Shown: piece after piece, positions 5,072 to 30,319 of the stretch | Position numbering within the stretch: the stretch's first letter is position 1 | How the letters are laid out: each line of letters starts with the position of its first letter | DNA from: Candidatus Saccharimonadota bacterium | Lineage (GTDB): Bacteria; Patescibacteriota; Saccharimonadia; Saccharimonadales; Saccharimonadaceae | Length of the DNA stretch: 32,000 bases | Assembly (NCBI RefSeq): GCF_025273655.1 | Contig: NZ_CP045921.1 | Coordinates: 1-32,000 of the forward strand | Reading direction: 5' to 3' | The notes under the pieces: model-generated | What the model was told of the DNA's origin: nothing | The model's input: the letters and a program-made list of their open reading frames with translations, nothing else | The model's database searches: none | Position numbers and translations under genes: made by a program

Positions 5072-6346
5072 TTACTTCTTCCTGTACCAATTATACCCGG
5101 GCTGTGTGGCACTCTGCTGAGTATCGGCCATCGGCGCACGTTCGTCGAGCGAAGCAGAGGCAATTGTGGCGCCAAACCCATCAGGCTTTTTGCCACGGTC
5201 ACCGACGTAGATGAAGGTGTGAGATGAGTTGATTGCCACGTCACCTTGCTGAAGTTTTCCTGGCGTGACATCCTCTGGTTTGATTTTAACCCAGTTTTTT
5301 TGCATCCAGGCTTCTTGGGAGCTTGTCGGCCCCCCTTTGCCGTTGTAGTTATAGCCTGGGTCATAGCCGCTATCGCGCACCAGGAGTGTCACGAAGCCGC
5401 CGCAATCGATACCTCGTGTTGTGGCAGTGGTGCCACCGACATAGTAGCCGCCAGCAAGAGCTTTTTTGACGGCGGCGGCATAGGCGTCGGTCGGCTTGAT
5501 TGTCATGCCTTTATAGGTCGGCCACGCGTAAGCTTTGAGGGTTTGATCGAGATTGCCTCCAGAGAAGCTACTGCTCGCGCAGCTACTATCGCTGGACTCT
5601 GATGTACTTTGACTCGTGTCACTCGCGGCTTGGCCATGCTCATCGACCTTCTCTTCTCCACTCGGATTATTCATCTCACTGCTAGCAGTACTACCGGCAA
5701 GTGCGGGGGCGTTCTTGTACTGATCATAGACCTTTTTGGCATTGCCGCCACGCACACTGCGCACTGCCGAGTCTGAGTCTGCCGAGCTTTCATAGCCATC
5801 GTGTACGACGACGGCCGCTTCTACTGGGTCGTTGGTGCGCTTGAGATTATTGAGCGTAGAAAGGTATGGGCCAGATAGTTCTACCCAGGTGAAACTGAGC
5901 TGGCCACCAAGGTCGGTGTTTTTGACGCCCATTTTGTCGATATGATCCTGGAGGGGTTTTTGACGCCCCGTAAAGGTCCACTGTACGAGCCCGAAGCCGA
6001 CGCCGTTTTGCAGCGTGTAGGTTTCGTTTTCGCCAATCAGCTTGCCGCCTTGCACTACATTTGGTTTCAGGCCGGATTCCTGCATCATATTCCCGACGAT
6101 ACCGCTTGCCTGGGCAAGATTAAGGCCTTTGCGCATATAGAAGTTGAGAATTTTTTCGACATTGTTGTTGCCAGCGAGTGATACAGCCCCTGCGCCCTGT
6201 GTTCTGCATTCATCATCGACAGCCCATGCCTCTTGGAGCATATACCTCTGCGGGTCGGTGATGGCCGCTACACGCACAGGAAATACCAGCTCATTCATGA
6301 GTAGGATGGCGGTGATCGCCAGGCAGACAGCACGACCAAAGCGCAT
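5072..6346 (-). CDS. Secreted two-domain peptidoglycan hydrolase: lysozyme-like (Phage_lysozyme2-type) + NlpC/P60- or CHAP-like cysteine peptidase (424 aa)
   Basis: Preferred ATG 6346, 1 nt after the TAA of the upstream gene, gives the signal-like N-terminus MRFGRAVCLAITAILLMNELVFPVRVAA. The track start 6433 would overlap the upstream gene by 86 nt. Motifs GIVGNMMQESGLKPN...GFGLVQWT. Ser-rich linker. C-terminal candidate catalytic Cys in GIDCGGFVTLL and His in SSHTFIYVG. The architecture parallels two-domain conjugation hydrolases of the CwlT type. Confidence 0.75.
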   Translation of the reverse strand: MRFGRAVCLAITAILLMNELVFPVRVAAITDPQRYMLQEAWAVDDECRTQGAGAVSLAGNNNVEKILNFYMRKGLNLAQASGIVGNMMQESGLKPNVVQGGKLIGENETYTLQNGVGFGLVQWTFTGRQKPLQDHIDKMGVKNTDLGGQLSFTWVELSGPYLSTLNNLKRTNDPVEAAVVVHDGYESSADSDSAVRSVRGGNAKKVYDQYKNAPALAGSTASSEMNNPSGEEKVDEHGQAASDTSQSTSESSDSSCASSSFSGGNLDQTLKAYAWPTYKGMTIKPTDAYAAAVKKALAGGYYVGGTTATTRGIDCGGFVTLLVRDSGYDPGYNYNGKGGPTSSQEAWMQKNWVKIKPEDVTPGKLQQGDVAINSSHTFIYVGDRGKKPDGFGATIASASLDERAPMADTQQSATQPGYNWYRKK

Positions 6347-6347
6347 G

Positions 6348-9284
6348 TTAGCCGCTACCTCCGCTGGCTTTATCGAGGTAAGGTTTTGGGTCGATAGGCT
6401 GACCGGTGCCGCTATTAGTATCGGAGCGTCCACCGGGCCATATTTCGAAGTGAAGATGCGGACCAGTGCTCTGCCCTTCGCTGCCGATACCAGCGATAGG
6501 CTGACCAGCCTTTACAGTATCCCCTACTTTTACGAGTATAGTATTGGCGCGCATGTGTCCATAGACAGTGTCGACGCGTTGTCCGTCGACCTCGTGCTGG
6601 ATCACAACCCAGTTACCGAAGCCGTTCGCGGGTCCGGCGGCAATCACCTTACCATCACGCGCAGCGTAGATTGGTGTACCGAGCGGCCCGGCTAGGTCGA
6701 TACCGTTGTGGCGGGTACCATCGCGCATACCGAAGCCGCTCGACACTTCCGTCTTGCTTTTCACGGTTGGGTAGGCCCAGCCATCGAGGCCAACTTTACC
6801 GGCTGCGCCACCATCGAATGCCTCTTGTGAGCCACCATCCATACCTGGCAGATTTTGGTCGAGTCCTTCGTTGATACCGAGGCTGAGCTTGAACTTGGCA
6901 TAGTGCCAATTCTTTTCGTAGTTAGCTTCGGCTACGCAGCCGCTGCCATTTGTCGGGTCTTTTTCAATATCTTCGGTAGCGCCAGGTTGCTGGTCGACAC
7001 ACTGTTCGAGATATTTCTTGTAGTTCCATAGTTGGCCGTTATCTGCCGGATCACCACTGTCAGAATCAACAATAATTTCGCCGTGCTCTGCCATCCACTT
7101 GGCGTTCTCGACTGGGTCGATCTCCATGGCTTCGTCTGGTAGGCCGAACACCATCACACATGTAGGATTAATGGCGACATTTGGTCCGAGCTGCGCATAG
7201 TCAGGGTCGTTGCAGTACGTGTAGCGATCTTTTTTGACAATATAGTCCGAGTCGGCGTGTGTGAGTGGCATGGCGACCGTACTCATGGCAGTGGTCGCGA
7301 CAGATGGCAGTGCGGCTAATGCGCCACCGAGATGTGTGCTGTCAATAGTGCGGAGGCTGGCGGCAATTGGCAGCGTAGTGCGCGCTAGTGAGCCGAGAAA
7401 AGAGAATTTATTGCTAGTATCAAACGGCTTTTTCACTGCGGCTAGCCGGTCGAGCTCATCGTATGCCTGCAACGTCTCGCGTTTACTGTTTTGGTATTTT
7501 GTCATTTTGTCTGGGCTGAGACTCATCATGCCTTGGGATCGTGCCATGCCGTTATACATCGCATCCGAGCCTACGGCGGTGGCGGTGCCGAAGTCGGTGT
7601 ATTTGAGGCCTTTGGTGACACTACCCGCAGCAATACTCGCAAGTTGTGCGGTCAGGAGCGGCATGGCCGCGCCAAACGCCACCGACAAGCCAAGCTGTGC
7701 AGCGGTACCGGCGCCAAATGTACCTACGCCCACAGCAATCGATACCGCTAGTACTCCGGCACGCACGAAGTTATTTTGCACGACACGGCAACGCTGTGAC
7801 ACCTCTGCCGTGGAACTGGCACCGGTCATGCGCGCCACGAGTTGCTGGGCGTTGCCAATCCCTGCTAACCTGTCACCACCAAGGAGAAGTGCTTTGCCCT
7901 GTTGGCTCATATTTTTCACGCCACCAAAGTCTTGATCTCGCGAGCCTTTCACGAGGGGCGAATCGAAGGCATTTTTACCACTATCGGGGCTGACTACTTC
8001 TGGAAGGTCGCTTCCGTAGGGTGTCTCACCTATTTTGGACTGATCGGCCACCTTCGTAGCAGGCGCGGCGTCCATAAGACGGTTTGACGGTGCTTCTACC
8101 GCCTCTGGGTATGATGTCTCGGCACGGAGCATGCTGGCAGGTTGAAATACGTTGTAGAACGCCAATCGTATCATCTCTTTGTATTGGAGGACGCGTGCGG
8201 CAACTCGCACGGCGGTGGCAGTGTTGAATACGGTACAGGCTGTATCGAGGGCATTGACCCGTCCAGCTGCCTTGCCGATAGTATCGCTGACAGCACCGAC
8301 AGATGGCGAGGCGTCGAGCTGTTTGCCGAAATCTTCGATAGCTTTGGCCTCTGCGGCACTATAGCGACGCCCATCTTCATCTTCGAACTCCCCGGTTTCG
8401 TTGCCATCTTTGTCTTTGACCGGTGTGAGCTTCGACGTCTCGATGTCGGTTTCTCCCGAGACGCGCTTGTCGGTCTCCTCCTGTACCTCTTTGACGGTGT
8501 TTTTCTTTTCGCCCATAGCGTAGGTAACTTTATTTTTAGAGAGGAAGTCCATGATTTCTTTGCCCTTATAGACACTGAAGCGCGGGCTATAGACCATGTA
8601 CATTTTGGCTCGGAACACGGGGTCGGACTTCATAAGTTTGGTGAAGGCTTCTGGTGAGTTGGCCTCGATGCGTGTGCCATCGGCTTTGACTACAGAGATA
8701 GTTTTGATACGGCCTCGCTTCTCAGTGAAACCTTTGTCTTCGTCAAACGTCATCATGAGTTTGTCGTCGCTCGAGGCATTGATGCGCCCAAGCGTTTTTT
8801 CCATCTTCTCCATATTGACGGTCTCATAGCGGCAGGCGATTTTGACAGCACCACAGGAGCCTTTGGTGGCTGTACTGAGTTTGTTGCGCCAGAGTTGTGA
8901 TGTGGTCTTGTCGACGCCTGAGAGCTGTGTGTTGAGGTCTCGGTCTAAGATGTCTGCCATCATGAGTAGTGGTGTCCCTGGCGCGAGACTGACGATAACA
9001 GCGCTACTTCCTCCGGCGATAAATAGTGCGATTGCGATGGCGGGTGATTTGCGACGCATGCCTTGAAAGAAGCCGGTGAAACGGCGTTTGCTACCGCCCG
9101 ATCGCTTGGGCGCACGCGTTTCTGGTGGTTTGGTCTGCTGGGCAAGTCGGGCGGCTTCAGTACGAGCGGCAGCTTCGCCATCTGCGTGCGCAAGGGTGGC
9201 GGCGCGTTTCTTTTCTTGGTCATACCAAAGACCCTGCTCTTCGAGCCGAATGTTTCCGGGAGATCGTTGTTCGTCCTGCGGCAT
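6348..9284 (-). CDS. Large membrane-anchored protein with C-terminal Peptidase_M23 (LytM-type) domain (978 aa); VirB1/PrgK-like role proposed
   Basis: GGTGGAG RBS upstream of ATG 9284. Charged N-terminus, TM AIAIALFIAGGSSAVIVSL, second hydrophobic block AGVLAVSIAVGVGTFGAGTAAQLGLSVAFGAAMPLL. C-terminal zinc motifs HNGIDLAG (HxxxD) and GPHLHFEIW (HxH). Confidence 0.8.
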   Translation of the reverse strand: MPQDEQRSPGNIRLEEQGLWYDQEKKRAATLAHADGEAAARTEAARLAQQTKPPETRAPKRSGGSKRRFTGFFQGMRRKSPAIAIALFIAGGSSAVIVSLAPGTPLLMMADILDRDLNTQLSGVDKTTSQLWRNKLSTATKGSCGAVKIACRYETVNMEKMEKTLGRINASSDDKLMMTFDEDKGFTEKRGRIKTISVVKADGTRIEANSPEAFTKLMKSDPVFRAKMYMVYSPRFSVYKGKEIMDFLSKNKVTYAMGEKKNTVKEVQEETDKRVSGETDIETSKLTPVKDKDGNETGEFEDEDGRRYSAAEAKAIEDFGKQLDASPSVGAVSDTIGKAAGRVNALDTACTVFNTATAVRVAARVLQYKEMIRLAFYNVFQPASMLRAETSYPEAVEAPSNRLMDAAPATKVADQSKIGETPYGSDLPEVVSPDSGKNAFDSPLVKGSRDQDFGGVKNMSQQGKALLLGGDRLAGIGNAQQLVARMTGASSTAEVSQRCRVVQNNFVRAGVLAVSIAVGVGTFGAGTAAQLGLSVAFGAAMPLLTAQLASIAAGSVTKGLKYTDFGTATAVGSDAMYNGMARSQGMMSLSPDKMTKYQNSKRETLQAYDELDRLAAVKKPFDTSNKFSFLGSLARTTLPIAASLRTIDSTHLGGALAALPSVATTAMSTVAMPLTHADSDYIVKKDRYTYCNDPDYAQLGPNVAINPTCVMVFGLPDEAMEIDPVENAKWMAEHGEIIVDSDSGDPADNGQLWNYKKYLEQCVDQQPGATEDIEKDPTNGSGCVAEANYEKNWHYAKFKLSLGINEGLDQNLPGMDGGSQEAFDGGAAGKVGLDGWAYPTVKSKTEVSSGFGMRDGTRHNGIDLAGPLGTPIYAARDGKVIAAGPANGFGNWVVIQHEVDGQRVDTVYGHMRANTILVKVGDTVKAGQPIAGIGSEGQSTGPHLHFEIWPGGRSDTNSGTGQPIDPKPYLDKASGGSG

Positions 9285-9334
9285 GCTAGAGTCTACTCCA
9301 CCCTATAAAAGAAAAGGGTAACTATTACAGACAG

Positions 9335-9363
9335 AGTATACACCTTTTTTGCATATTATGCAA
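9335..9363 (-). promoter_or_regulatory. Sigma70-like promoter for the 978-aa hydrolase operon, with the -35 inside a palindrome
   Basis: Minus strand: TTGCAT (9363-9358), 17 nt spacer, TATACT (9340-9335), about 50 nt upstream of ATG 9284. The -35 lies inside the 15-nt palindrome TTGCATA-T-TATGCAA (9349-9363). Confidence 0.45.
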
Positions 9364-9388
9364 TCTTATATTAGTGATATCGGGCTTA

Positions 9389-9832
9389 TTACCACGGTAT
9401 GCTGTACACTAAATAAATAGAAGTGAACATCGCTACTATGTGCGTAAAAACAGGGAATCGCCTATAAAGTGGCGTAAGTATCCCGGCAGCAATCAGAACG
9501 GGTAGAAATGTGAGAAGGATGCGTGAGATATTCAGTGGAGTGAAGTCCGACGAGACGAGCCGAAATAGGATAAGAGGTATAATTACGATACTTACCATGC
9601 AGCCAAGTAAAATCAGGAAATTATTAAGCTTCGTTGTAGTTGGGTGTTTGAGATGTGGACTGGCAACAATAATGAGCGAAATACACGCCGGTAGAAGTGG
9701 CCACAGCGGCATGGAATAATGCGACATTGAAAACACAAAAGCGAGTGACCACATCGTCAAATACGCAATCAAAGGATTATCTCCAATAAAGAAATTACGC
9801 CAGAACGCTACAAAAAGCTGCAGTCTCTTCAT
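9389..9832 (-). CDS. Small polytopic membrane protein, unknown function (147 aa)
   Basis: ATG 9832 overlaps the TGA of the upstream gene (ATGA). Four to five hydrophobic helices. A+T-rich coding sequence. No family recognised. Confidence 0.6.
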   Translation of the reverse strand: MKRLQLFVAFWRNFFIGDNPLIAYLTMWSLAFVFSMSHYSMPLWPLLPACISLIIVASPHLKHPTTTKLNNFLILLGCMVSIVIIPLILFRLVSSDFTPLNISRILLTFLPVLIAAGILTPLYRRFPVFTHIVAMFTSIYLVYSIPW

Positions 9833-10716
9833 CCGATGTACCCCGCATTACCAGTCACAAATGATAAATCCTCTGTTGGAAGTGGATTGTTTCGAAACGC
9901 TGCGTATAGTCCGATAGCAATCACAACGAATACTATAGCGGTGATAATCATGTTGCGCAGTAGCGTTCGATCCGGCGGGGCTATACCCTTTCTGGGATCC
10001 TCCAATAGGTACATAGACAAGATCGAGACACCAAGATATGTTGGTACGAGTAGCGCAAAAGCCACATACTCATTTGGCCAGATAATCCCGGCCCCGGTTG
10101 CCGCAAAGACGGTTCCGAAACTGACAAGTAAAATTCCCACTGCGAATTTCATGGAGTTTTCTGGAAACTTAGAAAGTGGCTTATGAATAAACACCCCAAG
10201 ACCACTCACGAGCAATATGGCGGCAACTGAGATACTTGCGCCAAATAGCAGGTTATCGTAGAGCGCACCAAATGCCAGTACGATAAATATTACCTCAAGT
10301 CCTTCAATGATGATTGTTTTATAAGCGATTACAAACGCGTACCAGTCTATACCCTCTCGCTCACCCTTTTGGCGTTTAGCATTTCTTCGTTCTCTATCAT
10401 ATACTTCAAGTTCATCACGTGTCGGTTTGAGGCCCATGTAGCGCAAGATAGCCTTGTGTACCCACTGCAGGCCAAAAATCAACAATATCCCACCGCCAAA
10501 CAGCCATACTGCATGAAGTGGAACTAGCAAAAGCGCATAGCCAACGGCTGCCACGATGACAGTTAGCGTGAGCACGCCGGCTATGATCGCATATGTCACT
10601 GAGCGCCATCCGCGAACTATTGCTACCGCGAGGACGATAGTAAGTGCTTCGATTGCCTCAACTGCTGCTGCGAGGAATATTGCAACACCAAAAAATAAAT
10701 CAGGAGTGGCGTTCAT
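9829..10716 (-). CDS. Polytopic membrane protein with internal two-fold repeat, transporter-like (295 aa)
   Basis: Preferred ATG 10716, 1 nt after the TAG of the upstream gene (track start 10728 is TTG). About 8 hydrophobic segments split by the charged loop RDELEVYDRERRNAKRQKGEREG. Each half begins with an acidic helix (AAVEAIEALTIVLAV / IIIEGLEVIFIVLAF). Weak resemblance, from memory, to UPF0016/GDT1- or COG4280-type proteins. Confidence 0.55.
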   Translation of the reverse strand: MNATPDLFFGVAIFLAAAVEAIEALTIVLAVAIVRGWRSVTYAIIAGVLTLTVIVAAVGYALLLVPLHAVWLFGGGILLIFGLQWVHKAILRYMGLKPTRDELEVYDRERRNAKRQKGEREGIDWYAFVIAYKTIIIEGLEVIFIVLAFGALYDNLLFGASISVAAILLVSGLGVFIHKPLSKFPENSMKFAVGILLVSFGTVFAATGAGIIWPNEYVAFALLVPTYLGVSILSMYLLEDPRKGIAPPDRTLLRNMIITAIVFVVIAIGLYAAFRNNPLPTEDLSFVTGNAGYIG

Positions 10717-10717
10717 A

Positions 10718-12184
10718 CTAGAGAGCAAGCGCCTTGTTTATTGGTAAATCATTTGGATTATTTTGGTATTGGACTGCGTTTACATCAATATCGTACGACT
10801 GCAGATATGTCTGGACGAATCGTTGACACTTTGCCAGCGACTCTGGCTTAGCTGTAGTCACAATATTTGGCTTTGCATTCGATTTGAAGTTAACAAAGTC
10901 AAAATAACAATCTTCTTGTTCATACGGAAATAGTAGATTGAGCTGAGTAATCAGAGCTGACGGTTTTAATTTGCTGCCAAGTCCTACTTTGAAGAGTTTG
11001 AACGAATATTCGTTGTCGATAAAGCGCTGCGACGTGACATAGATATTCTTTTTCGCACTATCGATTGCCATGAAATTGATGTCGCCCGGTATAGAGCTGA
11101 GGTCGGCAAGCTGGTGAGCAATGCCATCATTGAGCGTGTATCTCCAAACTATTTTCGACCCTGCATAGATAATCGAGTTTTCATCGATCCAGGTTGGTGC
11201 AGTAGAATTATTTTTTGGTGTACTCTGAATAAGTTTGAGTTTGGTATCATAAATCCCGTTCAAGTCACCATTGAGAACTATTTTGTTGCCCGATGGCGAG
11301 AAGAAACCTTCGTACACTTCGCCATCTATCTTGTTTTGCGTACCATCAGTGCGAATAATATGAACACCACCCTCACGCGAGCTCTGGGATCGCTCCGCTA
11401 CCAGTACCGCACTATTCGTGCTATCGAGCACACTCAGTCCATCACCTTCGTATACCTTCTGGTATGACTCGCTTCCTGAGGTTTTTTTGTAGAGCGTTTT
11501 GCGGTCTGACACATAGATTGTTTTATCGGGTGAGATACTTGCTGACAACTGGCCAGAACTCAGGTTGAGATTTGCGATAGCTGACTCCTTAAGGGTGCTT
11601 CCATCTGTTTCGTACAGTTGATTTGCAATGCTCACTCCTAAGCCCGTACCGTCATTTGCCCAATTCATTGATGAAAAGTACCCGCGCATTAATTCATCTT
11701 GGCTTACCTGACCACTGAGGTCAACAATTTGATTATTTGCATCAACCGAGAGGAATCGTTTTTGTAGTACGTTGTTGTTATTTACAAAGCTTAGGCGCTT
11801 ATCGTTGATATAGGAGAACATTGCGCCAAAGCTTGTTACGGGCTCAATACTATAGATATCTGCACTATCAGATATACTCAATTCAACCGTTGTCTTTTGT
11901 GCGAAATTTACATGAACGACTTTTTCTGTCGACCCGCCGCTAGATTTTGCACTGACCGCATAGTCCCCTGTTGGTACGGTATGTGAGCTTCTGGTACCAT
12001 CTAGTTTGAAATTGATAACTTCTGGGTTTGGTCGTATCCTTCGCACCTGAACCTCATAGCCAGCCTTGTCGACGACTACTTCAAGTGAACCCATAGTGAA
12101 GAGGCGGAATAGAAGCGCTATAAGTATTGCGGCGACTGATCCGATTACAAATGCGAGTATGATTTTTTTAACTTTTGGCTCCAT
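10718..12184 (-). CDS. Membrane-anchored PEGA/Ig-like + beta-propeller-like protein (488 aa)
   Basis: Preferred ATG 12184 with AGGAGG 5 nt upstream, where the SD overlaps the TAG of the upstream gene (track start 12208 is TTG). TM KKIILAFVIGSVAAILIALLF. TGDYAVSAKSSGGSTEKVVHVNF stretch. Recurring strand motifs ISPDKTIYV, FSPSGNKIV and IDSAKKNIYV suggest a TolB-like propeller. Confidence 0.6.
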   Translation of the reverse strand: MEPKVKKIILAFVIGSVAAILIALLFRLFTMGSLEVVVDKAGYEVQVRRIRPNPEVINFKLDGTRSSHTVPTGDYAVSAKSSGGSTEKVVHVNFAQKTTVELSISDSADIYSIEPVTSFGAMFSYINDKRLSFVNNNNVLQKRFLSVDANNQIVDLSGQVSQDELMRGYFSSMNWANDGTGLGVSIANQLYETDGSTLKESAIANLNLSSGQLSASISPDKTIYVSDRKTLYKKTSGSESYQKVYEGDGLSVLDSTNSAVLVAERSQSSREGGVHIIRTDGTQNKIDGEVYEGFFSPSGNKIVLNGDLNGIYDTKLKLIQSTPKNNSTAPTWIDENSIIYAGSKIVWRYTLNDGIAHQLADLSSIPGDINFMAIDSAKKNIYVTSQRFIDNEYSFKLFKVGLGSKLKPSALITQLNLLFPYEQEDCYFDFVNFKSNAKPNIVTTAKPESLAKCQRFVQTYLQSYDIDVNAVQYQNNPNDLPINKALAL

Positions 12185-12192
12185 GGTACCTC

Positions 12193-15192
12193 CTAGAATT
12201 TCGGCCAATCTGCCGGCACTGGCTTAGTACTGGTTGGTCCTTGAATTTGACCACCCTTGCCGCCAAGCTTTTTGATGAACTTATCCATATATAAACCTGA
12301 GCTTGACGCGTAGCTACCACCTCCGCCTGCATTGTAATCCGACCAACTCACATATCCAGACCCACTTTGTTTGCCGCCGCCTTCCGCAAATCCAAGTTCG
12401 AGCCAAGAATCGGCGTATGTGTAGGTGCAGATTTCCTTGTTGGCATCGACTGTATCACCTTCTTTCACTCTTGGGATACAATCCTCCGTGATATAGACAG
12501 ACTTACCTTTCAGCGATCCGGCCGTAAATTCATATTTGATGTAAGAGCCAGGTACACCAGGCCAACCGGAAGAGCCGGTATCTGGCCAGACACCCGTAAT
12601 TTTTGCAGGGCCAATTGCATAGACGGGTTTACCCTTATCGGTGCTGTTGCCCTGATCGATACCTCCGTCAACACGTTTAGAAACATCTTCCGACTGCGTA
12701 AGGTCGCGGAATGGATCTTTGTATTCACCAGTGCTTGCCCCCTGGCTACAGTCGGCAGTTGCATCCGATGATGAACTTGTAGTTGTGGTCGATGGACTTC
12801 CTCCCCCGTCATCTGTTGAGATACTTGCCTCAATCTCTTTTGGTAACGGTTTACCCTTTGATGCCTCTAGAACTGCTTTCGCATATGTTTGGCGTTGAGG
12901 GACACTTTCGCTGTGGGCTGAACGCTCGTATTTATCGTGGAATGACTGTGTGGCGCCATCAGAAGATGTTTGTTTCTTTAAATCTTCACCCGCCCCTGTT
13001 TCTGGTGATGGTGATTTAGGATCTGTTAATTGTGCCCATAGGAAATCCAGCTGGGTGGCGAGCTGATTGGCGTTTTTACCTGATTTTTTTGTAGGGGTAA
13101 TCATCTTGCCAGCAGGTGTCCACTGGACAATACCCCACCCATTTGAATTGCCCTCTGCTTGGTCTGCCGGAGTTTTTGTCGCAAGGGGGGTACTCTGCAG
13201 GCGTTGAGGGGCTACACCCGACTCGAGAATCATATTGCCCACTACACCGGCAGCTTGTTCAGGAGTGAGCTTCTTACCCACTAGATAATTAAAGGCTTTA
13301 GCGGCATTATTATTGCCCGCCAAGCTGCCGCCGCCCGAATCTGGACAGCAGCTGTTACTTTTTGAGTCCTCAAAAAACCCTTTGCGATTTGCAAGCTCAA
13401 GTGCCTTATTATAAGCATCATTGATACGATCGGCTGGCACACCTTGTTTGACTGCACTGATAATTCTTCCAAGCTGTCCTTCGTCAGTAAATTTGAATAA
13501 TGGTGTATCGACACCGCTATTAAAGCTGTCGACGATTGTCTGCTCTAGGGATTTGCCGTTGTAGTGCGTAAGGGCAGTTAGATCATCTGTCATGACAACA
13601 TCTTGGTAATTGAGATCAGTCTTGAGTGAGTCAATCAGTGTCTTGTTGTTTGGCGCTGGGATATTACCCTGGTTTGAGATGTATGCATTTGAAAGCATGA
13701 CAACAGTACCAGTCGGAAGATCCTTAAATACCGACGCTGCAGGACCGTTTGGGTCGTATGTGGTGGATACGGCAGCCTGGTCGCTATTACCTGATACGCT
13801 ACCAATTCCTGGGAAATGTTTATATACACCAGTGATACCACCCTTGTTAAGACCCTCTGTGAATGCGCGCGCCTTGGCTTTTGTGCGTGCTGCATCGGTT
13901 CCAAATGCACGTCCTCCGTTGAGATGATTGCCCGGGTCTCGTGCACCTAGGTCAACTACCGGAGCAAGATCGACATAGACCCCATTCTCACTCAAGGCCT
14001 TGCCGATCTGTTCACCTGCAGCGGTCACTTCATCATTGGGGGCGTTGCCTAGGTCGGCAGCGGCAGGTGTGCCGATATCATACCGATCAACTACGCCACC
14101 CTCTTCATCTGCCGTGGCGATAAACGAACCGAGCGATTTCTCCCTTGCTTGATCGAAGAACTGTTTATTAAACACGGTTCCGGCACCTTGCCCAGTCATA
14201 AAGAGCCCGCCGAGCTTGTACTTATCTATCATTGCGAGCGGTTGCGCTGGACCGCCACCTACGTCGAAGCCGACTATGAATGTCTTGGCTATTTTCTGCT
14301 CAATAGACGGCTCATTTTTTGTCACATCAGCTTGGGCTGGGTTGGTTGCTGTTCCGGAGGTTCCAGCATTTCCAGAGACACCCTGTTGTGTCGATGAGGA
14401 AAGGTTGGTGGTAGAACTTGCCATCAAGTTGCCGAGACGTGTCATACCAGAGGCAGATGGAATCACAGGAGTACCTGGAGTGGCAGTCTCGTTAATCATG
14501 TCCTTAGGGTCAGCGGTTTTGGCCATCTGCGCCTGGTCTGTTGGGTCGAGTGAAGTGTCGACCGCCTGTGCCCAAGACATTAATTTATAACCCTTTTCAG
14601 ATGCAGTATCTCTGATTGCAAGATTAGTTTTGGCGAATCCAGCGGCACCCGCATAAGGTACAGGGTTGTTGGATGCGTAAGTATCTACCCAGTAATAACT
14701 TGCTTTGGGGCTAAGCTCCTTGAGCTTATCGGCAACTTTACCGATGGATCCCTCATCCGCACCACCATAGGTACCAAGCTGGATGATAATAGCTTGCACA
14801 TCTTTGAGTTTATCCTTTGCTGCATCAAGTTTGGCTGGTGCATCGGCGACAGTTTGTCCGCCGATCCCGTTCACCTCGACGCTTGTATATCCACTGTTTT
14901 TGAGACTGCTGGTGATCGAAGCTTTGGCGGCGTTAGTAATGTCGTCGCCTAGTACATATACATTGCCAAGCGCCGTCGGAGATTTACTAGGTGGTCCACA
15001 TGGTTCATAGTAGAGAACCTGGTTTGTGGCGTAGTCAAACGGATATACGCCTGTTTCGGCTTCGGTTGCTGCTTGGGCTGGTAATGACACGACACCCACG
15101 ACAGCAATTGAGAACATGTTTACACGCAGTATCCACAATAGCTCATGCCGTATTATACTAAGTGTTTTTCGTAGGACTGACAATCGTATCAC
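12193..15192 (-). CDS. Secreted multidomain cell-wall hydrolase: SGNH-like (GDD variant) + GH3 NagZ-like + lysozyme-like + degenerate LytM-like C-terminus (999 aa)
   Basis: Track start GTG 15192 overlaps the TGA of the upstream gene (GTGA). Alternative ATG 15117 gives the signal peptide MFSIAVVGVVSLPAQAA. Motifs: VYVLGDDITN; GH3-like ADEEGGVVDRY, DLAPVVDL, KHFPGIGSVSGNSD, VVMTDDLTAL; lysozyme-like AAGVVGNMILESGV...NGWGIVQWT...QLDFLWAQL. The C-terminal ~178 aa are beta-rich and lack zinc ligands. Confidence 0.8.
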   Translation of the reverse strand: MIRLSVLRKTLSIIRHELLWILRVNMFSIAVVGVVSLPAQAATEAETGVYPFDYATNQVLYYEPCGPPSKSPTALGNVYVLGDDITNAAKASITSSLKNSGYTSVEVNGIGGQTVADAPAKLDAAKDKLKDVQAIIIQLGTYGGADEGSIGKVADKLKELSPKASYYWVDTYASNNPVPYAGAAGFAKTNLAIRDTASEKGYKLMSWAQAVDTSLDPTDQAQMAKTADPKDMINETATPGTPVIPSASGMTRLGNLMASSTTNLSSSTQQGVSGNAGTSGTATNPAQADVTKNEPSIEQKIAKTFIVGFDVGGGPAQPLAMIDKYKLGGLFMTGQGAGTVFNKQFFDQAREKSLGSFIATADEEGGVVDRYDIGTPAAADLGNAPNDEVTAAGEQIGKALSENGVYVDLAPVVDLGARDPGNHLNGGRAFGTDAARTKAKARAFTEGLNKGGITGVYKHFPGIGSVSGNSDQAAVSTTYDPNGPAASVFKDLPTGTVVMLSNAYISNQGNIPAPNNKTLIDSLKTDLNYQDVVMTDDLTALTHYNGKSLEQTIVDSFNSGVDTPLFKFTDEGQLGRIISAVKQGVPADRINDAYNKALELANRKGFFEDSKSNSCCPDSGGGSLAGNNNAAKAFNYLVGKKLTPEQAAGVVGNMILESGVAPQRLQSTPLATKTPADQAEGNSNGWGIVQWTPAGKMITPTKKSGKNANQLATQLDFLWAQLTDPKSPSPETGAGEDLKKQTSSDGATQSFHDKYERSAHSESVPQRQTYAKAVLEASKGKPLPKEIEASISTDDGGGSPSTTTTSSSSDATADCSQGASTGEYKDPFRDLTQSEDVSKRVDGGIDQGNSTDKGKPVYAIGPAKITGVWPDTGSSGWPGVPGSYIKYEFTAGSLKGKSVYITEDCIPRVKEGDTVDANKEICTYTYADSWLELGFAEGGGKQSGSGYVSWSDYNAGGGGSYASSSGLYMDKFIKKLGGKGGQIQGPTSTKPVPADWPKF

Positions 15193-18100
15193 TGCTCTAC
15201 CCCTACATGCATATGGTTACATACGTCGGTTACGAGCTCGCTATTCTTGAGTGATGGAGAAGGTGCTGATGGTGGTTTTGAGAAACATTGTTTTTGGCCC
15301 AGCTCTAATTTGACTCCGGCTGTACCTGCTAAATTATCAAGGTACTCGTAAAACTCCTTAACTATTGGTTTATCCGCGGCCGTCCAGTCGATTCGCATCT
15401 GCTGTGGCTGATCTAGATGCGCAACTCCGTTGAGGTCTACGGCTGAGCCTTTTGGATGCCATCCTCCATCACATTCATGACCAGAGGCTTGAGCGCCGAT
15501 AGTAATTTTGTATTTTTTCGATGCCTCGACAAGCATACCGAGCAGCTTACCATTCATATTAGCTTTTCCACCACAGTCAAGTGTCTGAGTACCATCTTTC
15601 GCGGTTTGTTCCATATAGCCTCGCTGCTCCGGGAGTTGGAATTTCACATTTGGGCTATCAAGCAGCGCTTGAGCGGCCGCCTTGGCGTCATCACCAATTT
15701 CTCCTGTTGCTTCTTCTGCTTTTTGTTCACCTTCGTCCGCTACGCCATCACGGATGTTTTCATCTGCGCGGTAAGCATGGAACATAGCAAGCATGGTGGC
15801 AGTAGTACCCGCTTGATCGCTAGGATATGTGCACCAATCGGCAGTTGCCCAGCTTTCATCCTCCGCGGGCACTTCACCACTCTCTTCGCCTTCTTCGCTG
15901 ACGGCATTTTTGGCAATAGATCCGTCTTCAGATCCGCCTGGATCCTCTACTCCTGCCGGCGCGCTACGTGTTACGCAGTATTTATTATATTTTTTATATA
16001 TTTTAGCTTTATCACTGCTTTCGATTTCGCCGGTATCTTTGTTGATGAACCCTTCGTCTTCCATATATTTGATAACACCTGGGTGCGAATCATCTCCCGT
16101 AGCATCGGCAGTCAAGGCCTCAGTTTCCATGTAGGTTGGCGAGACACAAAATGCATCACCTGCGAATGTATGTGTAGGGTCGCTGTCGACCGATGTGCGG
16201 ACCGCTGGGTCCGGGCAACTGTCTTCATTTTCGTCGTATTGACGCATCTCGTTGAATGTACCTTGTGCGGCGTGTGTCATACCGAGACTACCAACTGTTT
16301 TGGCAGCGAGACTCAGTGAAGATAGCATATTTGGCAGAAGCGATGCCGGGTTCCTACTTGAAGTTAGTGCGCCAGAGTTATAGAGATTATGTGTAATTGA
16401 TCCTAGGAATGAGTACTGGTTTGTCGCATCAAACGGTGTGGCTTGGGCGTCATACTGTTCGGCAAGTCTGTAGCTTGACATGTCGTCTGCAGTATCAGCC
16501 AAGAAGCCCTTATAGGAAGCAGCGTTTGCAAATACCAGTCCATTTGTAAGAGCAGTGTTTTGCATCAGAAGTCCCACGCCGGCGGCGAGGGCATTTCCTG
16601 CGTCTATGCCTTTTGTCTCTTCATCAACGGGCATTTTTGAGAGCCAGTCTATCAGATGCTCAACAAACTTTCCTATTATAGGGGCGAGCAAGGCGCCGAT
16701 GGCGGCCGCTATAACCGGCATAGCGGCAATACATGCCAATACTCCAGGTCCAGTGGCACCAAATAGCTGCGCGCACATAGCTGCGTCGCCGAGTGTTTGC
16801 GCCACTTGTCCATTAATGAGACTGCACATGGATTTAATAAGCGCTTTTCCGGCTTTTTTGGATGTACTGGTGTCGCGTCCGGTCAATGTACTCAAGAAAG
16901 GGGCTACCCCTGTACTGATGAGAGGACTGCCGACCGAGGTCTCAAAACTAGAGAGTACATTTGAAACACTTGCAATCGCAGCACCCCCAATTCGATAGCC
17001 GAGGGCGTAAGTCGAAAGCTCCACTAAGTCGCCATGAAGCAACATTTTCATACCCTCGCCATCAGAGAAGGTGGTTTGGTAGAACCTATTGGGCTTTCCT
17101 CCGCTCGTTGGATTTGTCTCGCTATAATTAAGTCGCCCGCCTATATAGTCGGTGATTTGCTGGTCGCTTTCTCCTGCGATTACTTTGTCGAACTCTACTG
17201 CAAATGACATAAAGAATCTGACCAACATCGCAATTTGAAGCATCTTAGCTCCTATCACAACTGCATTTGCCGTCGTATAGGTGGTGCAGGCCAGCGATAC
17301 GACCGATGAGCCAAGTGAGGTAAGCTTTCCAGCCTTCTCTCTTAGCTTACTTGTTTGCTTCTCTCGATTTTCCCTGACCTTTGAAGAGTCTCCATTGGCA
17401 GGGTCTCCCTCTAACTTCATGGACTGCCGGAACGATTTATCGAGCTCTTTCTTATCTTTACCCTCTAGGCCCGGTCCTTTTGTGATACCCCATCTGGTAG
17501 ATAGCAGCTCCTTGAAACGGCTACTCAAGAACGGCTTCTTGGTTACATCGTACGCACGGTTAATCGCTGCTCGAAAAGCCGGAATGCTTTTGAGTGCTGT
17601 AATCGTAGATGTTTTTGAATCTACCTTATGTTCTTTACCACTTGAATCGGTGACAGTGATGGACTTTATCGTCTTTCTGTCCCCCACGTCATCGCCCAAC
17701 TCTACCTTTATGCCGGCCTTACGCAGGTCTTTTACTAGTTTTTCTGGTGCGGTAACAGCCCTACACATTTTTGATTGCGGCTTCTCGCACGCCTTTTTCG
17801 CCTTATCAGGGTTGTTTTTGTCTGGCATCATCGATGAGAATACAGTCAAAAAGCGAGAGTTCATCGCAGGAGCCGACGTGTCGCGGGCATTGGTGAGATT
17901 TGCTTTGATCGCAGCAAATAATGTTGCTGGCGAGCTGAGAAATACAATGACAATCAAGCCAAAAATAGCAATAATTGCGCCGATAGTTGCAATCGGTCCG
18001 CTAGCCTTTACTCCTTTGAGCTGCCCTTTCCCGCCTCCGCCAACTCCGCCACCAGCCCCCATCGGGTTTTGCTCGCCATCCCGGGCTTTTGGCGTAAGGT

Positions 18101-18368
18101 CGCTACTAGCGGAATCTTTTGCCTCATCTTTTTTCTTGCCGGTGGATTTTGCGGATGGCTGAGGATCTTCGTCTTTATCGGAAGAATCGTCTTTTTTGGT
18201 CGACTGATCTGGCAAGTCCGAGTCAACTGAATTTTTCTCTGCTTGTGATAGCTGCTTAGCCGCCTGATACACTCCTATGGCAGAATTAACTTTATCCTGA
18301 AAGGTTTTCTCTGCAGGATTAAGTTCCTCTTGCTCTTCTTCTGGTGGTATATCAAGTAGCGTCGCCAT
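15189..18368 (-). CDS. Large membrane-anchored protein, paralog of the 978-aa protein, with C-terminal LAS-type Peptidase_M15/VanY-like domain (1059 aa)
   Basis: ATG 18368 lies 3 nt after the VirB4 stop. Acidic/Lys-rich N-terminus, Gly run GAGGGVGGGGKG, TM IATIGAIIAIFGLIVIVFLSS. Central region collinear with 6348-9284. C-terminal WHPKGSAVD (HxxGxAxD) and NHMHVGV (HxH). Confidence 0.7.
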   Translation of the reverse strand: MATLLDIPPEEEQEELNPAEKTFQDKVNSAIGVYQAAKQLSQAEKNSVDSDLPDQSTKKDDSSDKDEDPQPSAKSTGKKKDEAKDSASSDLTPKARDGEQNPMGAGGGVGGGGKGQLKGVKASGPIATIGAIIAIFGLIVIVFLSSPATLFAAIKANLTNARDTSAPAMNSRFLTVFSSMMPDKNNPDKAKKACEKPQSKMCRAVTAPEKLVKDLRKAGIKVELGDDVGDRKTIKSITVTDSSGKEHKVDSKTSTITALKSIPAFRAAINRAYDVTKKPFLSSRFKELLSTRWGITKGPGLEGKDKKELDKSFRQSMKLEGDPANGDSSKVRENREKQTSKLREKAGKLTSLGSSVVSLACTTYTTANAVVIGAKMLQIAMLVRFFMSFAVEFDKVIAGESDQQITDYIGGRLNYSETNPTSGGKPNRFYQTTFSDGEGMKMLLHGDLVELSTYALGYRIGGAAIASVSNVLSSFETSVGSPLISTGVAPFLSTLTGRDTSTSKKAGKALIKSMCSLINGQVAQTLGDAAMCAQLFGATGPGVLACIAAMPVIAAAIGALLAPIIGKFVEHLIDWLSKMPVDEETKGIDAGNALAAGVGLLMQNTALTNGLVFANAASYKGFLADTADDMSSYRLAEQYDAQATPFDATNQYSFLGSITHNLYNSGALTSSRNPASLLPNMLSSLSLAAKTVGSLGMTHAAQGTFNEMRQYDENEDSCPDPAVRTSVDSDPTHTFAGDAFCVSPTYMETEALTADATGDDSHPGVIKYMEDEGFINKDTGEIESSDKAKIYKKYNKYCVTRSAPAGVEDPGGSEDGSIAKNAVSEEGEESGEVPAEDESWATADWCTYPSDQAGTTATMLAMFHAYRADENIRDGVADEGEQKAEEATGEIGDDAKAAAQALLDSPNVKFQLPEQRGYMEQTAKDGTQTLDCGGKANMNGKLLGMLVEASKKYKITIGAQASGHECDGGWHPKGSAVDLNGVAHLDQPQQMRIDWTAADKPIVKEFYEYLDNLAGTAGVKLELGQKQCFSKPPSAPSPSLKNSELVTDVCNHMHVGVEQ

Positions 18369-18371: not shown

Positions 18372-20216
18372 TTATTGGGTTTGACCAGGTTGCTGTTGTT
18401 GCTGCTGCTGCTTGAGCTGTTCTACGGGGTTTGTACTGACGAGCTGTGTTTCTGTCTGGCTAGCGATAACTTGAATATGAACGTGATTTTGGCCGGCAAA
18501 GAAGAGCCCTTGACCCACTGGGAAGTTAGAGAGACGCTTCATTTCCTCTTCGGTGAGCTTGAACACGTTACTGAGTACATCCACTGCACTGGCTGACTGT
18601 TTGAGAAGCAGCTGCATAGATGAGTTTGCCACGATAGCACGACCCATCTTACTGCCCATAAAGTCTTCGACGTCCTGGGTGATAGTGGTGATGCCAAGGT
18701 AATATTTACGTGCACGTTTAGCAAGACTAAAGAGGAAGTTGGCGGAATCCTCGTATTTCATGAGCTGCCACGCCTCGTCCACGATTAACATGCGTTTTTT
18801 GCGTTGCGACCTGGTGATATTCCAGATATGGCTCAGGACGATATACATTGCCACCGGACGTAGCTCATCTTCCAAGTCGCGAATATTAAACACTACCATC
18901 GCATTGTTGATCTCTATATTGCTTTGCTGACTGAAGATACCTGCAAAGGTACCAGAGGTATATTTGCGTAGGCGCTGCGCAAGTTTTGGACCAGAACCCC
19001 CCATGTGGAGTAGTGTATCGTAGAGATCAGCCATGGTTGGCGGCATGCTGTTGTGTGTAAGTGGATCGCTTGTGATGCCTAAGCGCGCATAAGTGTCGAT
19101 TAATGCTTGATCTAGATCAGCCTCTTCTTCAGGGCTGAGGGTGACATTGGTATTTGTAGCGGTGGCTCCACCAAGCATGAGGCGCAGAAGACCATGAAGT
19201 GTTACTAAGTTGGCTCGCAGTGCATCATCAGCCTCGTCGGTGTCGATTACTTTCGGTAAGTCGAATGGATTGATGCGTACGTCAGAATTGAGACTGAGAC
19301 GAATATAGCTACCACCCACTGCATCACTAAGGCGTTGGTACTCATTCTCTGGGTCTATAATAAGTACATCCGCGCCTGTCATCATGGAGCGAACAGCTTC
19401 AAGTTTGACGGTGAATGACTTACCAGCACCAGACTTTGCGAAGACTACCATGTTTGCATTTTCGAGTGTAAAACGGTCAAAAATCACAAGGCCGTTGTTA
19501 TGCATGTTGATACCGTAGAGAATGCCTTTTTCCTGCGTGAGGTCGGCCGAAGTGAACGGGAATGACGTTGAGATCGCACCTGTATTCATATTTCGGCGAA
19601 TTTGTAGCTGGTCCATGAGCTGCGGAACGGTACTGTTGAGCCCCTGCTCCTGCTGACTACTTGCTACTTTACTAAACACCAATTGCTGACCAAAAAGTGT
19701 TTCTACCTTGTTCTGTACAAAAGTGAGATCATCCATACTGTTGGCATAGAGAGTTATATAGAGGCCGTAACGGAAAAATTTCTCACTTCCCACTTGGAGT
19801 TCATCACGTAGTTCTTCAGCATCTTGCAGAGCTGCTTCGAGGCCAGGGTCTCGCGTCTTGCCCTTTTCTTGGTTGATAGACATGCTCGCTTCAAGTTGAG
19901 TTACTTTTTTGCGCAGGTTTTGCATGACGATCTGCGTATCAACTGGATAGAGGAACATACTAACATCGAGCACTTCATCCATGTTGATGATGCTACTGAG
20001 CCAACCGGTGTAGATCTGGCGGGGATATCCATATATATAGAGTGTGCGGCCGTATTTGGTACCAAGACGGAAGTGGTCGGCGTGGAACTCCAGACTGCTT
20101 GGTGCAATGAGATCGCGCAGTGTATTGACGCCTTTGAGAAACGCCTGCTCGACCTCAGCTTGCTCGCGCGCACGTTGTTCGGCAGCTATATCAACTGCGT
20201 CTTTTTTCTTTGCCAT
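18372..20216 (-). CDS. virB4: T4SS VirB4-family ATPase, Gram-positive PrgJ/TcpF/ConE class (614 aa; appears to lack the extreme N-terminal domain)
   Basis: Walker A FAKSGAGKSFT and Walker B RMLIVDEAWQLM. YPRQIYTGWLSSI segment typical of this class. GGGAGAGGGGA SD. ATG overlaps the TAA of the upstream ORF (TAATG at 20214-20218). Poly-Gln C-terminus QQQQQQQPGQTQ (codons 18390-18410). Confidence 0.9.
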   Translation of the reverse strand: MAKKKDAVDIAAEQRAREQAEVEQAFLKGVNTLRDLIAPSSLEFHADHFRLGTKYGRTLYIYGYPRQIYTGWLSSIINMDEVLDVSMFLYPVDTQIVMQNLRKKVTQLEASMSINQEKGKTRDPGLEAALQDAEELRDELQVGSEKFFRYGLYITLYANSMDDLTFVQNKVETLFGQQLVFSKVASSQQEQGLNSTVPQLMDQLQIRRNMNTGAISTSFPFTSADLTQEKGILYGINMHNNGLVIFDRFTLENANMVVFAKSGAGKSFTVKLEAVRSMMTGADVLIIDPENEYQRLSDAVGGSYIRLSLNSDVRINPFDLPKVIDTDEADDALRANLVTLHGLLRLMLGGATATNTNVTLSPEEEADLDQALIDTYARLGITSDPLTHNSMPPTMADLYDTLLHMGGSGPKLAQRLRKYTSGTFAGIFSQQSNIEINNAMVVFNIRDLEDELRPVAMYIVLSHIWNITRSQRKKRMLIVDEAWQLMKYEDSANFLFSLAKRARKYYLGITTITQDVEDFMGSKMGRAIVANSSMQLLLKQSASAVDVLSNVFKLTEEEMKRLSNFPVGQGLFFAGQNHVHIQVIASQTETQLVSTNPVEQLKQQQQQQQPGQTQ

Positions 20217-28733: not shown

Positions 28734-28734
28734 T

Positions 28735-29157: not shown

Positions 29158-29159
29158 AT

Positions 29160-29459: not shown

Positions 29460-29487
29460 ACGGATTAAATAAACGAAGGAACGAATA

Positions 29488-30249: not shown

Positions 30250-30261
30250 TGAGTACAGAAG

Positions 30262-30290: not shown

Positions 30291-30319
30291 CATACAAAGA
30301 AAGAAAGGAACAAAATCAA

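Follow-up and report, generated by a model that had tools for sequence, protein, structure and literature searches.

What are the large proteins that Saccharibacteria encode directly downstream of virB4 in their type IV secretion system (T4SS) loci, and which wall might they act on? We addressed this question in the window, i.e., the whole 32,000-nucleotide stretch of DNA analyzed here (positions 1 to 32,000 of contig NZ_CP045921.1), which is the origin-proximal T4SS locus of the Saccharibacterium Candidatus Mycosynbacter amalyticus. Origin-proximal T4SSs that lack a relaxase have already been described for Saccharibacteria (PMC10633639; PMC12102498), and a 2024 perspective referred to the role of the essential Saccharibacterial T4SS as "completely unknown" (PMC11665869). 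A study on Candidatus Mycosynbacter amalyticus describes this Saccharibacterium as a parasite that lyses its Gordonia host (PMC11880426). The window contains two genes, A and B, for scaffold proteins of 978 and 1,059 residues, which a sequence-only reading of the window had proposed to be collinear, membrane-anchored paralogs with different LAS-type zinc peptidase domains at their C-termini. Here, we report that A and B are paralogs that represent a fixed and a variable lineage of a large scaffold family, and we consider it probable that each of them provides the endopeptidase of one of two paralogous wall-breaching modules that lie in tandem and belong to the Saccharibacterial T4SS.

Paralogy, fold and catalytic domains of A and B

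Both open reading frames (ORFs) proposed in the sequence-only reading are present on the minus strand (Table 1), and every sequence block quoted from them is found in the translations, with B's block having been listed first in each pair. B corresponds, with 100% identity, to GII36_00055, which is a hypothetical protein of Candidatus Mycosynbacter amalyticus. Using BLASTP, we found that A and B align in two collinear high-scoring segment pairs (A548-772/B576-815, E 9e-9; A190-380/B231-389, E 6e-6). A semi-global alignment of the two scaffolds (A76-800 against B116-830) had a z-score of 30.6 relative to 100 shuffles; the identity was 24.4% across 634 positions, and four cysteines of the two proteins align. 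Using hhalign on profiles of the A and B lineages from which the catalytic domains had been removed, 629 columns were aligned (A75-773 to B119-809) with a probability of 100% and an E value of 3.6e-57. These pairwise and profile comparisons support that A and B are collinear paralogs across the whole scaffold, and the similarity extends beyond the low-complexity parts. The shared part measures ~700 residues and is shorter than the ~800 residues originally suggested.

In both proteins, a charged or basic N-terminus is followed by one strongly hydrophobic helix, and both contain the Gly/Ala-rich hydrophobic mid-region that had been pointed out previously. Among 125 members of the scaffold family, the N-terminal anchor segment is transmembrane-grade in 98%, and the Gly/Ala-rich mid helix is transmembrane-grade in hydrophobicity in 78%. 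The proposal of one transmembrane segment per protein fits the N-terminal helix and has to be qualified for the mid helix, which could be buried in a helical bundle, be membrane-inserting, or form a second membrane segment. A single transmembrane segment is plausible, and the scaffold may be envelope-spanning, as proposed in the sequence-only reading. Along the scaffold, nearly invariant cysteines occur in even-numbered groups, which would fit an extracytoplasmic scaffold with disulfides and, hence, a single anchor.

An AlphaFold2 model of the B scaffold, which was built on an alignment of 77 sequences and covers residues 110-1059 (predicted local distance difference test [pLDDT] 85.3; predicted template modeling score [pTM] 0.80), comprises the anchor helix, a small beta domain at B221-249, long helices of up to 42 residues, and an unstructured acidic linker at approximately B809-890 followed by the LAS-type domain. 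A Foldseek search with this 950-residue model against PDB identified no relative (best E 0.61, probability 0.04, template modeling score <0.1). Similarly, an hmmsearch of PDB sequences with the scaffold profile gave no match, phmmer of B against PDB sequences gave a single weak match that is meaningless, and the scaffolds of A and B have no match in Pfam or NCBIfam. We also considered that part of the scaffold could be VirB8/NTF2-like, and dropped this candidate because the model is almost all alpha-helical and has no PDB match by Foldseek or by profile search. Accordingly, the earlier suggestion of a VirB8-type component is not supported, as no NTF2-like alpha+beta domain follows the transmembrane segment.

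A ends in a canonical M23 domain, as had been recognized. Residues 858-953 match Peptidase_M23 (PF01551) with 105.3 bits (cut-off 28.7; E 1.9e-30), and M23 chains in PDB match the C-terminus of A down to E 6e-31. By translating the codons, we confirmed that both catalytic/zinc motifs are intact (HNGID at residues 859-863 and HLH at residues 943-945), which argues that the head of A is not a degenerate LytM-type activator. The A orthologs P0003-P0010 (40-100% identity) all contain the M23 domain.

The HxxGxAxD...HxH motif noted at the C-terminus of B is present as HPKGSAVD (residues 971-978) and HMH (residues 1052-1054), also verified by codon translation. LAS enzymes of the D-Ala-D-Ala-peptidase/Hedgehog branch have Hx6D...HxH as their signature. 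Across 44 aligned homologs, for which the mean column identity is 34%, G974, D978, H1052, H1054, Q1025, D1048, and C932 are invariant, and H971 together with three further cysteines is conserved in at least 90% of the sequences. An AlphaFold2 model of the domain based on these 44 sequences had a pLDDT of 93.5 and a pTM of 0.87. Using Foldseek with this model, the 18 best PDB matches were all Hedgehog-N (with 6n7g_C on top) or the Zn DD-peptidase 1lbu, and all were weak, with VldE, MepA, and Ply500 lower among the matches; matches in BFVD, likewise all weak, include Sonic hedgehog, M15A, and M15C annotations. A profile of the B head searched against PDB sequences retrieved only Hedgehog N-domains (Shh-N), at the zinc motif and with an E value of 0.34.

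The C-terminal ~165 residues of B have no Pfam or NCBIfam match at E ≤0.01 and no PHROG family, and five stand-alone homologs of the head have no Pfam match at the same threshold. Using hhalign, only the 15-residue Hx6D motif of the B head aligned with the VanY-type tails that occur in the scaffold family. Based on its motifs and its model, the head of B is best called a putative divergent LAS domain of the Hedgehog/DD-peptidase fold and not a member of the VanY/M15B sequence family. Thus, the previous M15/VanY assignment does not hold at the level of sequence families, while the core of that proposal, i.e., different ends of the LAS-type zinc peptidase kind (M23 in A and the putative Hx6D...HxH domain in B) on a common scaffold, does. 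The invariance of the predicted ligands suggests that the B head is catalytic. With its compact and confidently modeled domain, the LAS-type family is an addition for peptidase classification.

The LAS-type domain of B also occurs in stand-alone or short proteins of 180-400 residues that have no Pfam match (among P0028, P0120, P0126, P0099, P0117, P0116, P0131, and P0145). In eight proteins of ~1,000 residues, it is found on N-terminal regions that are missed by the scaffold hidden Markov model (HMM) and have a similar pattern of hydrophobic segments.

A scaffold family with exchangeable heads in a duplicated module

An exhaustive phmmer search with B120-1059 identified 472 clusters (50% identity) at E ≤1e-3, including 298 at E ≤1e-10. 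We classified 161 proteins, i.e., the best 150 representatives and 12 proteins from two word-indexed searches, with B being part of both sets. A word-indexed search with full-length B gave two matches, probably because its low-complexity N-terminus saturated the list of candidates, and a further word-indexed search with the LAS profile gave four short proteins. Among the 161 proteins, 135 match the scaffold of A or B by phmmer, and 144 match the scaffold HMM. The family members with an organism label are all Candidatus Saccharibacteria.

Using Pfam and local profiles, we identified at least 10 types of C-terminal domains on the scaffold (M23, LAS-type, CHAP, NlpC/P60, VanY, Amidase_3, Exo_endo_phos, GH43, Alginate_lyase2, and BSP), while part of the family has no extra C-terminal domain. 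The Exo_endo_phos, or Endonuclease/Exonuclease/phosphatase (EEP), domains are often N-terminal to M23 or CHAP, and such genes are located directly after virB4; one to three EEP domains are present in P0056, P0064, P0088, P0027, P0032, and the 9707-14281 genes of loci L017 and L019. EEP heads could be relevant to the acquisition of nucleotides or lipids by auxotrophic epibionts. GH43 heads are present in P0065 and P0142, one of which carries the JGI annotation arabinan endo-1,5-alpha-L-arabinosidase. The Alginate_lyase2 and BSP peptidase heads are single cases each.

For synteny analyses, we annotated 31 loci from species-representative genomes, nearly all of which are Saccharibacteria or metagenome-assembled genomes of Saccharimonadales, and four loci fetched via the orthologs of A. 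The 31 loci were recovered via a subset of 29 sequences that share PFDxxNQYSF and are, therefore, biased toward members with that motif. Besides the window, the scaffold gene is located directly after virB4 in ~20 species-level genomes, and a Phage_lysozyme2 gene follows the scaffold gene in ~25 loci. In the window, the virB4 stop lies 3 nt ahead of the start codon of B (18368-18372), and the stop of B and the start of the gene that follows share 4 nt (15189-15192). These junctions suggest that virB4, B, and the downstream GH3-lysozyme gene are translationally coupled in one operon. As for VirB1/PrgK-type hydrolases, the scaffold gene lies in the T4SS cluster beside a core component.

This arrangement bears on the possibility that A and B are general wall hydrolases for growth or division that merely lie beside T4SS genes and have no link to secretion. 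M23 and LAS peptidases are common autolysins, and the locus is located beside dnaA-dnaN-recF among housekeeping genes. Nevertheless, we consider this explanation very improbable given the position directly after virB4 in ~20 species-level genomes, the tight or overlapping junctions, and the recovery of the family only from Saccharibacteria-type genomes and nearly always in T4SS loci. Two divergent scaffold homologs that have no recognizable C-terminal domain (L027 8411-11206 and L028 4238-7087) come after a VirB6-like gene instead of virB4 and may represent a second locus type.

Comparison of the loci supports that the scaffold gene is part of a four-gene module, which consists of the genes for the scaffold-peptidase, a Phage_lysozyme2 muramidase, and homologs of two small anchored proteins, p218 and p207, and which adjoins recF-dnaN-dnaA. 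At least 7 loci have one copy of the module, and 13 loci, among them the window, have a tandem duplication of it, which amounts to about half of the loci examined. In L003, each of the four genes has its homolog in the other copy, with the scaffolds matching at E 3e-54 over ~700 residues, the lysozymes sharing 55% identity, and the small-protein pairs (213- and 219-residue paralogs of p218/p207) matching at E 2e-22 and E 9e-12. These four homologous pairs support that the duplicated unit is the module. The paralogous pair described in the sequence-only reading is confirmed by the alignments, with the duplication involving the whole module instead of a lone gene. In the Mycosynbacter lineage, the proximal p218/p207 paralogs are replaced by membrane proteins of 496, 299, and 147 residues. 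The possibility that these three are p218/p207 homologs was rejected because none of them matches the p218/p207 HMMs.

We refer to the dnaA-side copies as distal and to the virB4-side copies as proximal. In a neighbor-joining tree of 39 scaffolds from the loci (604 columns, 100 bootstraps), all distal copies including A form one clade (98/100 bootstraps), and every one of them has an M23 domain. The proximal copies fall outside this clade and have mixed head types. B and its L001 ortholog, which are both LAS-type, group with an M23 protein of TM7 oral taxon 348 (100/100); the LAS-type L003 copy is sister to the M23 copy of L030 (100/100); and the LAS-type L007 copy is nested in an M23 clade (100/100). 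Based on these relationships, there were at least three LAS-type/M23 exchanges in the virB4-proximal lineage, each supported by 100/100 bootstraps for the relevant clades; because distance trees of this kind are crude, this conclusion is robust in its direction and not in the number of events. In addition, the proximal copies of L022 and L035 have NlpC/P60 heads, and the scaffold of P0014 is 46% identical to that of B, yet this protein has an M23 C-terminus. When head type was mapped on the scaffold tree of the 125 members, 53 Fitch steps were needed, compared with a minimum of 8 and with ~77 for shuffled labels.

The phylogenies of the scaffolds and of the catalytic domains are incongruent. 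The M23 head of the proximal copy of L021 is closest to the distal head of its own genome (63%), and the head of L005 is closest to the proximal head of L018 (68%), although the scaffolds of L005 and L018 belong to different clades. Together, the trees and the head repertoire support that C-terminal domain swapping is real and wider than originally proposed. The duplication of the module into a fixed and a variable copy is ancient.

Proposed wall breaching by the T4SS and alternative roles

How could a fixed and a variable copy of the same module serve a T4SS? We favor a scenario in which the scaffold protein would be anchored in the epibiont membrane by its N-terminal signal-anchor, and the long, cysteine-containing helical scaffold would present the zinc peptidase on a flexible acidic linker. 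The peptidase would cut peptide stems or cross-links of peptidoglycan, the partner muramidase would cut the glycan strands, and both enzymes may open the thick wall where the VirB4/VirB6/VirB3 machine and the VirB2-like pilus pass. The head of the B lineage is exchanged by recombination at the linker. The conserved A copy would do a constant job, and the variable B copy would be adjusted to differences in envelope chemistry, most plausibly those found in the actinobacterial host where the two cells meet.

Several lines of evidence suggest that the modules are coupled to the T4SS, i.e., the tight junctions, the synteny in ~20 genomes, the precedent of transmembrane-anchored multidomain hydrolases such as PrgK that are essential for T4SS function in Gram-positive bacteria (PMC12102498), and the essentiality of SEML1_0004-0007 in S. 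epibionticum as determined by Tn-seq (Wang et al. 2023, Table S1). A host-directed role of the variable copy is plausible in view of the GH43, alginate lyase, and EEP heads, the asymmetry between a fixed and a swapping copy, and the lytic lifestyle.

Several points weigh against this scenario. First, the PDB fold matches of the B head are weak (best E 0.046, probability ≤0.87, template modeling scores of 0.34-0.41). Second, curated M15 sequence profiles miss this head. Third, Hedgehog-N is not known as a conventional peptidase, and the B head could, therefore, be a binding module. Fourth, if the second strongly hydrophobic helix spans the membrane, the topology of the scaffold proteins and the location of their heads become uncertain. 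Fifth, the essentiality in S. epibionticum fits a role on the own wall and on the host wall alike and cannot separate the two.

A serious rival, which we regard as possible but clearly doubtful, is a self-directed VirB1/PrgK-type role. In this case, the two paralogs would remodel only the epibiont's own peptidoglycan for assembly of the channel and the pilus, and the diversity of the heads would reflect drift or redundancy among equivalent hydrolases instead of adaptation to a host. The signal-anchor and the position after virB4 have parallels in PrgK, TraG, and CwlT from the conjugation systems of Gram-positive bacteria, and most of the heads (M23, LAS-type, CHAP, NlpC/P60, VanY, and Amidase_3) are peptidoglycan hydrolases for which any wall is a possible substrate. 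By contrast, some scaffolds carry GH43, alginate lyase, or one to three EEP domains, for which we know of no obvious substrate in the Saccharibacterial wall. Moreover, the proximal lineage swaps its heads while the distal lineage is fixed, an asymmetry typical of parts that are adapted to a target.

The same polymorphism of heads on a conserved N-terminal body could also point to an exported penetration device or polymorphic effector. Here, the scaffold would be released or passed through the T4SS or its pilus and bring a host-adapted head to the host envelope, and the conserved hydrophobic helix would insert into the host membrane in the manner of phage tape-measure or ejection proteins. This possibility would agree with the long helical architecture and its conserved transmembrane-grade internal helix, with the Phage tail lysozyme domain encoded by the partner genes, with host-polymer enzymes among the heads, and with the lysis of the Gordonia host by Mycosynbacter (PMC11880426). 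Nonetheless, the hydrophobic N-terminal anchor and its basic flank predict retention in the membrane of the producer; we identified neither a cleavage site nor an immunity gene or a coupling protein; and no solved tape-measure or translocator protein is structurally similar to the scaffold model. We, therefore, consider an exported device to be distinctly unlikely.

A bolder variant, which we deem unlikely, is that the scaffold represents a Saccharibacteria-specific, T4SS-linked delivery or penetration class of novel fold that presents host-matched heads, such as peptidoglycan peptidase, arabinanase, nuclease/phosphatase, or alginate lyase, or even injects them into the host envelope. The mid helix would then act on the host membrane, the exchanged proximal head would set the host range, and the host would be opened for nutrients.

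Returning to the two proposed wall-breaching modules, our analyses place the gene directly after virB4 in a large family that is absent from curated resources and stands out by a conserved body unmatched by any solved structure, by interchangeable heads, and by an ancient fixed/variable duplication. Some of these heads are plausibly aimed at host-specific polymers, i.e., arabinan, alginate-type polysaccharide, and nucleic acid or phospholipid. As a result, the vague notion that the T4SS may deliver effectors becomes testable in terms of which envelope is cut, which domain is responsible, and whether head type follows the wall chemistry of the host. The heads are also candidate lytic enzymes against mycolata such as foam-forming Gordonia.

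Gene map of the window and comparison with known systems

The genes dnaA, dnaN, and recF open the window on the plus strand and are followed by the T4SS cluster on the minus strand (Table 1). Starting at ~28 kb and reading toward recF, the order is two VirB6/TrbL-like genes, an ORF of 194 residues, PrgI/VirB3-like, TrsD-like, VirB4, B, the GH3 and Phage_lysozyme2 fusion, three small membrane proteins, A, a Phage_lysozyme2 protein, and two proteins of ~210 residues.

Table 1. Positions of the scaffold genes, their domains, and the other T4SS-locus features in the window
Feature	Position (nt)	Strand	Basis
Gene A, dnaA-proximal ("distal") lineage; 978-aa scaffold protein with basic N-terminus, transmembrane anchor, ~700-aa helical scaffold, C-terminal M23 peptidase	6348..9284	-	ORF, Pfam M23, orthologs, tree
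A80-103, N-terminal transmembrane anchor after basic KRSGGSKRRF...RRK	8976..9047	-	Kyte-Doolittle 19-residue window 2.24
A76-800, shared scaffold	6885..9059	-	BLASTP, shuffle z-score, hhalign against B
A506-529, Gly/Ala-rich mid helix	7698-7769	-	Hydropathy
A858-953, Peptidase_M23	6426..6713	-	Pfam; HNGID 6696-6710, HLH 6450-6458
Gene B (GII36_00055), virB4-proximal lineage; 1059-aa scaffold protein with acidic/low-complexity N-terminus, transmembrane anchor, helical scaffold, acidic linker, C-terminal LAS-type (Hedgehog/DD-peptidase-like) domain	15189..18368	-	ORF, NCBI protein identity
B125-144, N-terminal transmembrane anchor	17937..17996	-	Hydropathy 2.77, zero charged residues; conserved in family
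B116-830, shared scaffold, mostly long alpha-helices with small beta domain 221-249	15879..18023	-	AlphaFold2 model
B541-577, conserved Gly/Ala-rich hydrophobic helix	16638..16748	-	Hydropathy
B895-1059, LAS-type zinc-peptidase-like domain	15192..15686	-	HPKGSAVD 15435-15458, HMH 15207-15215
p207, second small N-terminally anchored module protein, adjoins recF	3792..4415	-	Conserved; 21 ORFs in the loci compared
p218, small N-terminally anchored module protein	4415..5071	-	After lysozyme gene in 27 ORFs across loci
Phage_lysozyme2 (muramidase-like) partner of A	5072..6433	-	Pfam 5.7e-30
Three lineage-specific membrane/anchored proteins (496, 299, 147 aa)	9389..12208	-	ORFs; same trio in L001
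Partner of B, 999-aa Glyco_hydro_3 (GH3; NagZ-like) and Phage_lysozyme2 fusion	12193..15192	-	Pfam 8.8e-28 and 8e-31
VirB4-like ATPase (CD1110 family)	18372..20216	-	NCBIfam 7.2e-112; Pfam TraG P-loop
TrsD-like	20216-21304	-	Weak match to N-terminal part of VirB4-type ATPases
PrgI/VirB3-like	21333-22205	-	
194-aa ORF between PrgI and VirB6-like genes, no family match	22389-22973	-	
Two VirB6/TrbL-like paralogs, ~845 aa	23043-25586 and 25599-28124	-	Weak TrbL/VirB6 matches
Six tandem VirB2-like T4SS pilin genes	28269..30760	+	Pfam T4SS_pilin 3.7e-5 to 3.6e-13

The Phage_lysozyme2 partner of A is 75% identical to lys426 of L003 from residue 31 on. The ORF as listed has a GTG start and overlaps the 3' end of A by 86 nt; since alignments with homologs set in only at residue ~31, the gene probably starts just past the stop codon of A. 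The partner of B matches beta-N-acetylhexosaminidase in NCBIfam and shares 35% identity with the A partner across the lysozyme part. The fusion of a GH3 NagZ-like domain to a Phage tail lysozyme domain is unusual, and the protein has extra N- and C-terminal regions to which no domain is assigned; the same fusion gene is present in L001, and its equivalent in L003 combines Phage_lysozyme2 with Amidase_3. The 299-residue membrane protein has a weak match to an OFeT_1 permease-like family. The weak match of the TrsD-like protein to the N-terminal part of VirB4-type ATPases is consistent with reports that relate TrsD remotely to the N-terminus of VirB4, and this protein also has a weak match to a PHROG terminase large subunit. 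The two VirB6/TrbL-like proteins match each other at E 4e-158, so that with the pilins and the wall-breaching modules the locus contains three paralog sets. The Saccharibacterial pilin array has already been reported, and McLean 2020 first named those genes "effectors."

With respect to published Saccharibacterial loci, SEML1_0007 of S. epibionticum ML1, a protein of 1,113 residues encoded directly downstream of virB4 (Wang et al. 2023, PMC10633639), is by position, length, and published annotation the counterpart of B. Its residues 951-1105 were assigned by DPAM to Hedgehog/DD-peptidase with the template 6n7g_C (PMC10633639, Tables S1/S2), and its Foldseek neighbors include both M15B- and M23-domain proteins (PMC10633639). 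SEML1_0007 and B have the same position after virB4 and the same 6n7g_C template, and SEML1_0007 is followed by genes for a lysozyme and two small exported proteins; S. epibionticum has one module, and the window has two. SEML1_0005 at the position of p218 (PEGA/Ig-like) and SEML1_0004 at the position of p207 (prealbumin-like) are both essential (Wang et al. 2023, PMC10633639). SEML1_0012, which lies between two VirB6-like genes in S. epibionticum, is annotated as NTF2-like (VirB8-like). Quinonero-Coronel 2025 mentions an essential peptidase and a lysozyme downstream of virB4 in one sentence. The view of the sequence-only reading that the arrangement had not been described thus needs to be restricted, as a counterpart of B is annotated in the tables of Wang et al. 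2023, where the annotation is confined to a table row, and was mentioned subsequently. In the literature searched, there is no account of the scaffold family, its lack of a curated or structural match, the duplication of the module, or the exchange of heads, and the Mycosynbacter literature searched does not treat the T4SS. Wall hydrolases associated with T4SSs are well known; what is new in relation to the literature searched are the scaffold family, the four-gene module, its ancient duplication, and the recurrent exchange of heads.

Among systems beyond Saccharibacteria, phage tape-measure proteins such as Pb2 of T5 are ~1,000 residues long and largely helical, contain hydrophobic helices in their interior, and end in a zinc peptidase. 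The scaffold proteins resemble them in the long helical body, the hydrophobic mid helix, and the partner with a Phage tail lysozyme domain, but differ in being encoded by chromosomal T4SS genes and in having an N-terminal anchor; no similarity in sequence or fold to tape-measure or ejection proteins was found using PHROGs for the C-terminal domain of B and Foldseek for the scaffold. Polymorphic toxins (Rhs, CDI, and LXG) likewise combine a conserved body with variable C-terminal heads, whereas the scaffold family has an N-terminal membrane anchor in place of their secretion domain. A cognate immunity gene after the scaffold gene was not found, the next gene being the conserved Phage_lysozyme2 gene whatever the head type. 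The Xanthomonas X-Tfe effectors also include M23 and lysozyme-type wall hydrolases, and their conserved XVIPCD signal is C-terminal.

At the level of the catalytic domains, A belongs with M23 peptidases such as LytM, lysostaphin, and ShyA and has both motifs intact, its domain being fused to a Saccharibacteria-specific scaffold and a transmembrane anchor. The head of B shares Hx6D...HxH with enzymes of the LAS fold (1lbu of M15A, VanX/VanY of M15B/D, Ply500 of M15C, MepA of M74, and Hedgehog-N). What sets its family apart from them are cysteines conserved at four positions and two invariant residues, one Gln and one Asp.

The closest functional precedents are PrgK (pCF10), TraG (pIP501), and CwlT (ICEBs1), which are likewise peptidoglycan hydrolases encoded in T4SS operons and needed for channel function. 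The proposed analogy to PrgK is, accordingly, reasonable in that PrgK is a transmembrane-anchored wall hydrolase encoded in a T4SS operon of the Gram-positive type. PrgK has an N-terminal transmembrane anchor and a degenerate LytM domain, and PrgK, TraG, and CwlT combine a glycosidase (SLT/muramidase) and a CHAP/NlpC domain in one chain that has no helical scaffold of ~700 residues. In A and B, no glycosidase domain of the lytic transglycosylase or muramidase type was detected using Pfam and NCBIfam, and the Phage_lysozyme2 domain is encoded by the neighboring gene. Thus, in contrast to PrgK, TraG, and CwlT, the Saccharibacterial modules have the peptidase and the muramidase on separate genes, and the M23 motifs of A are intact.

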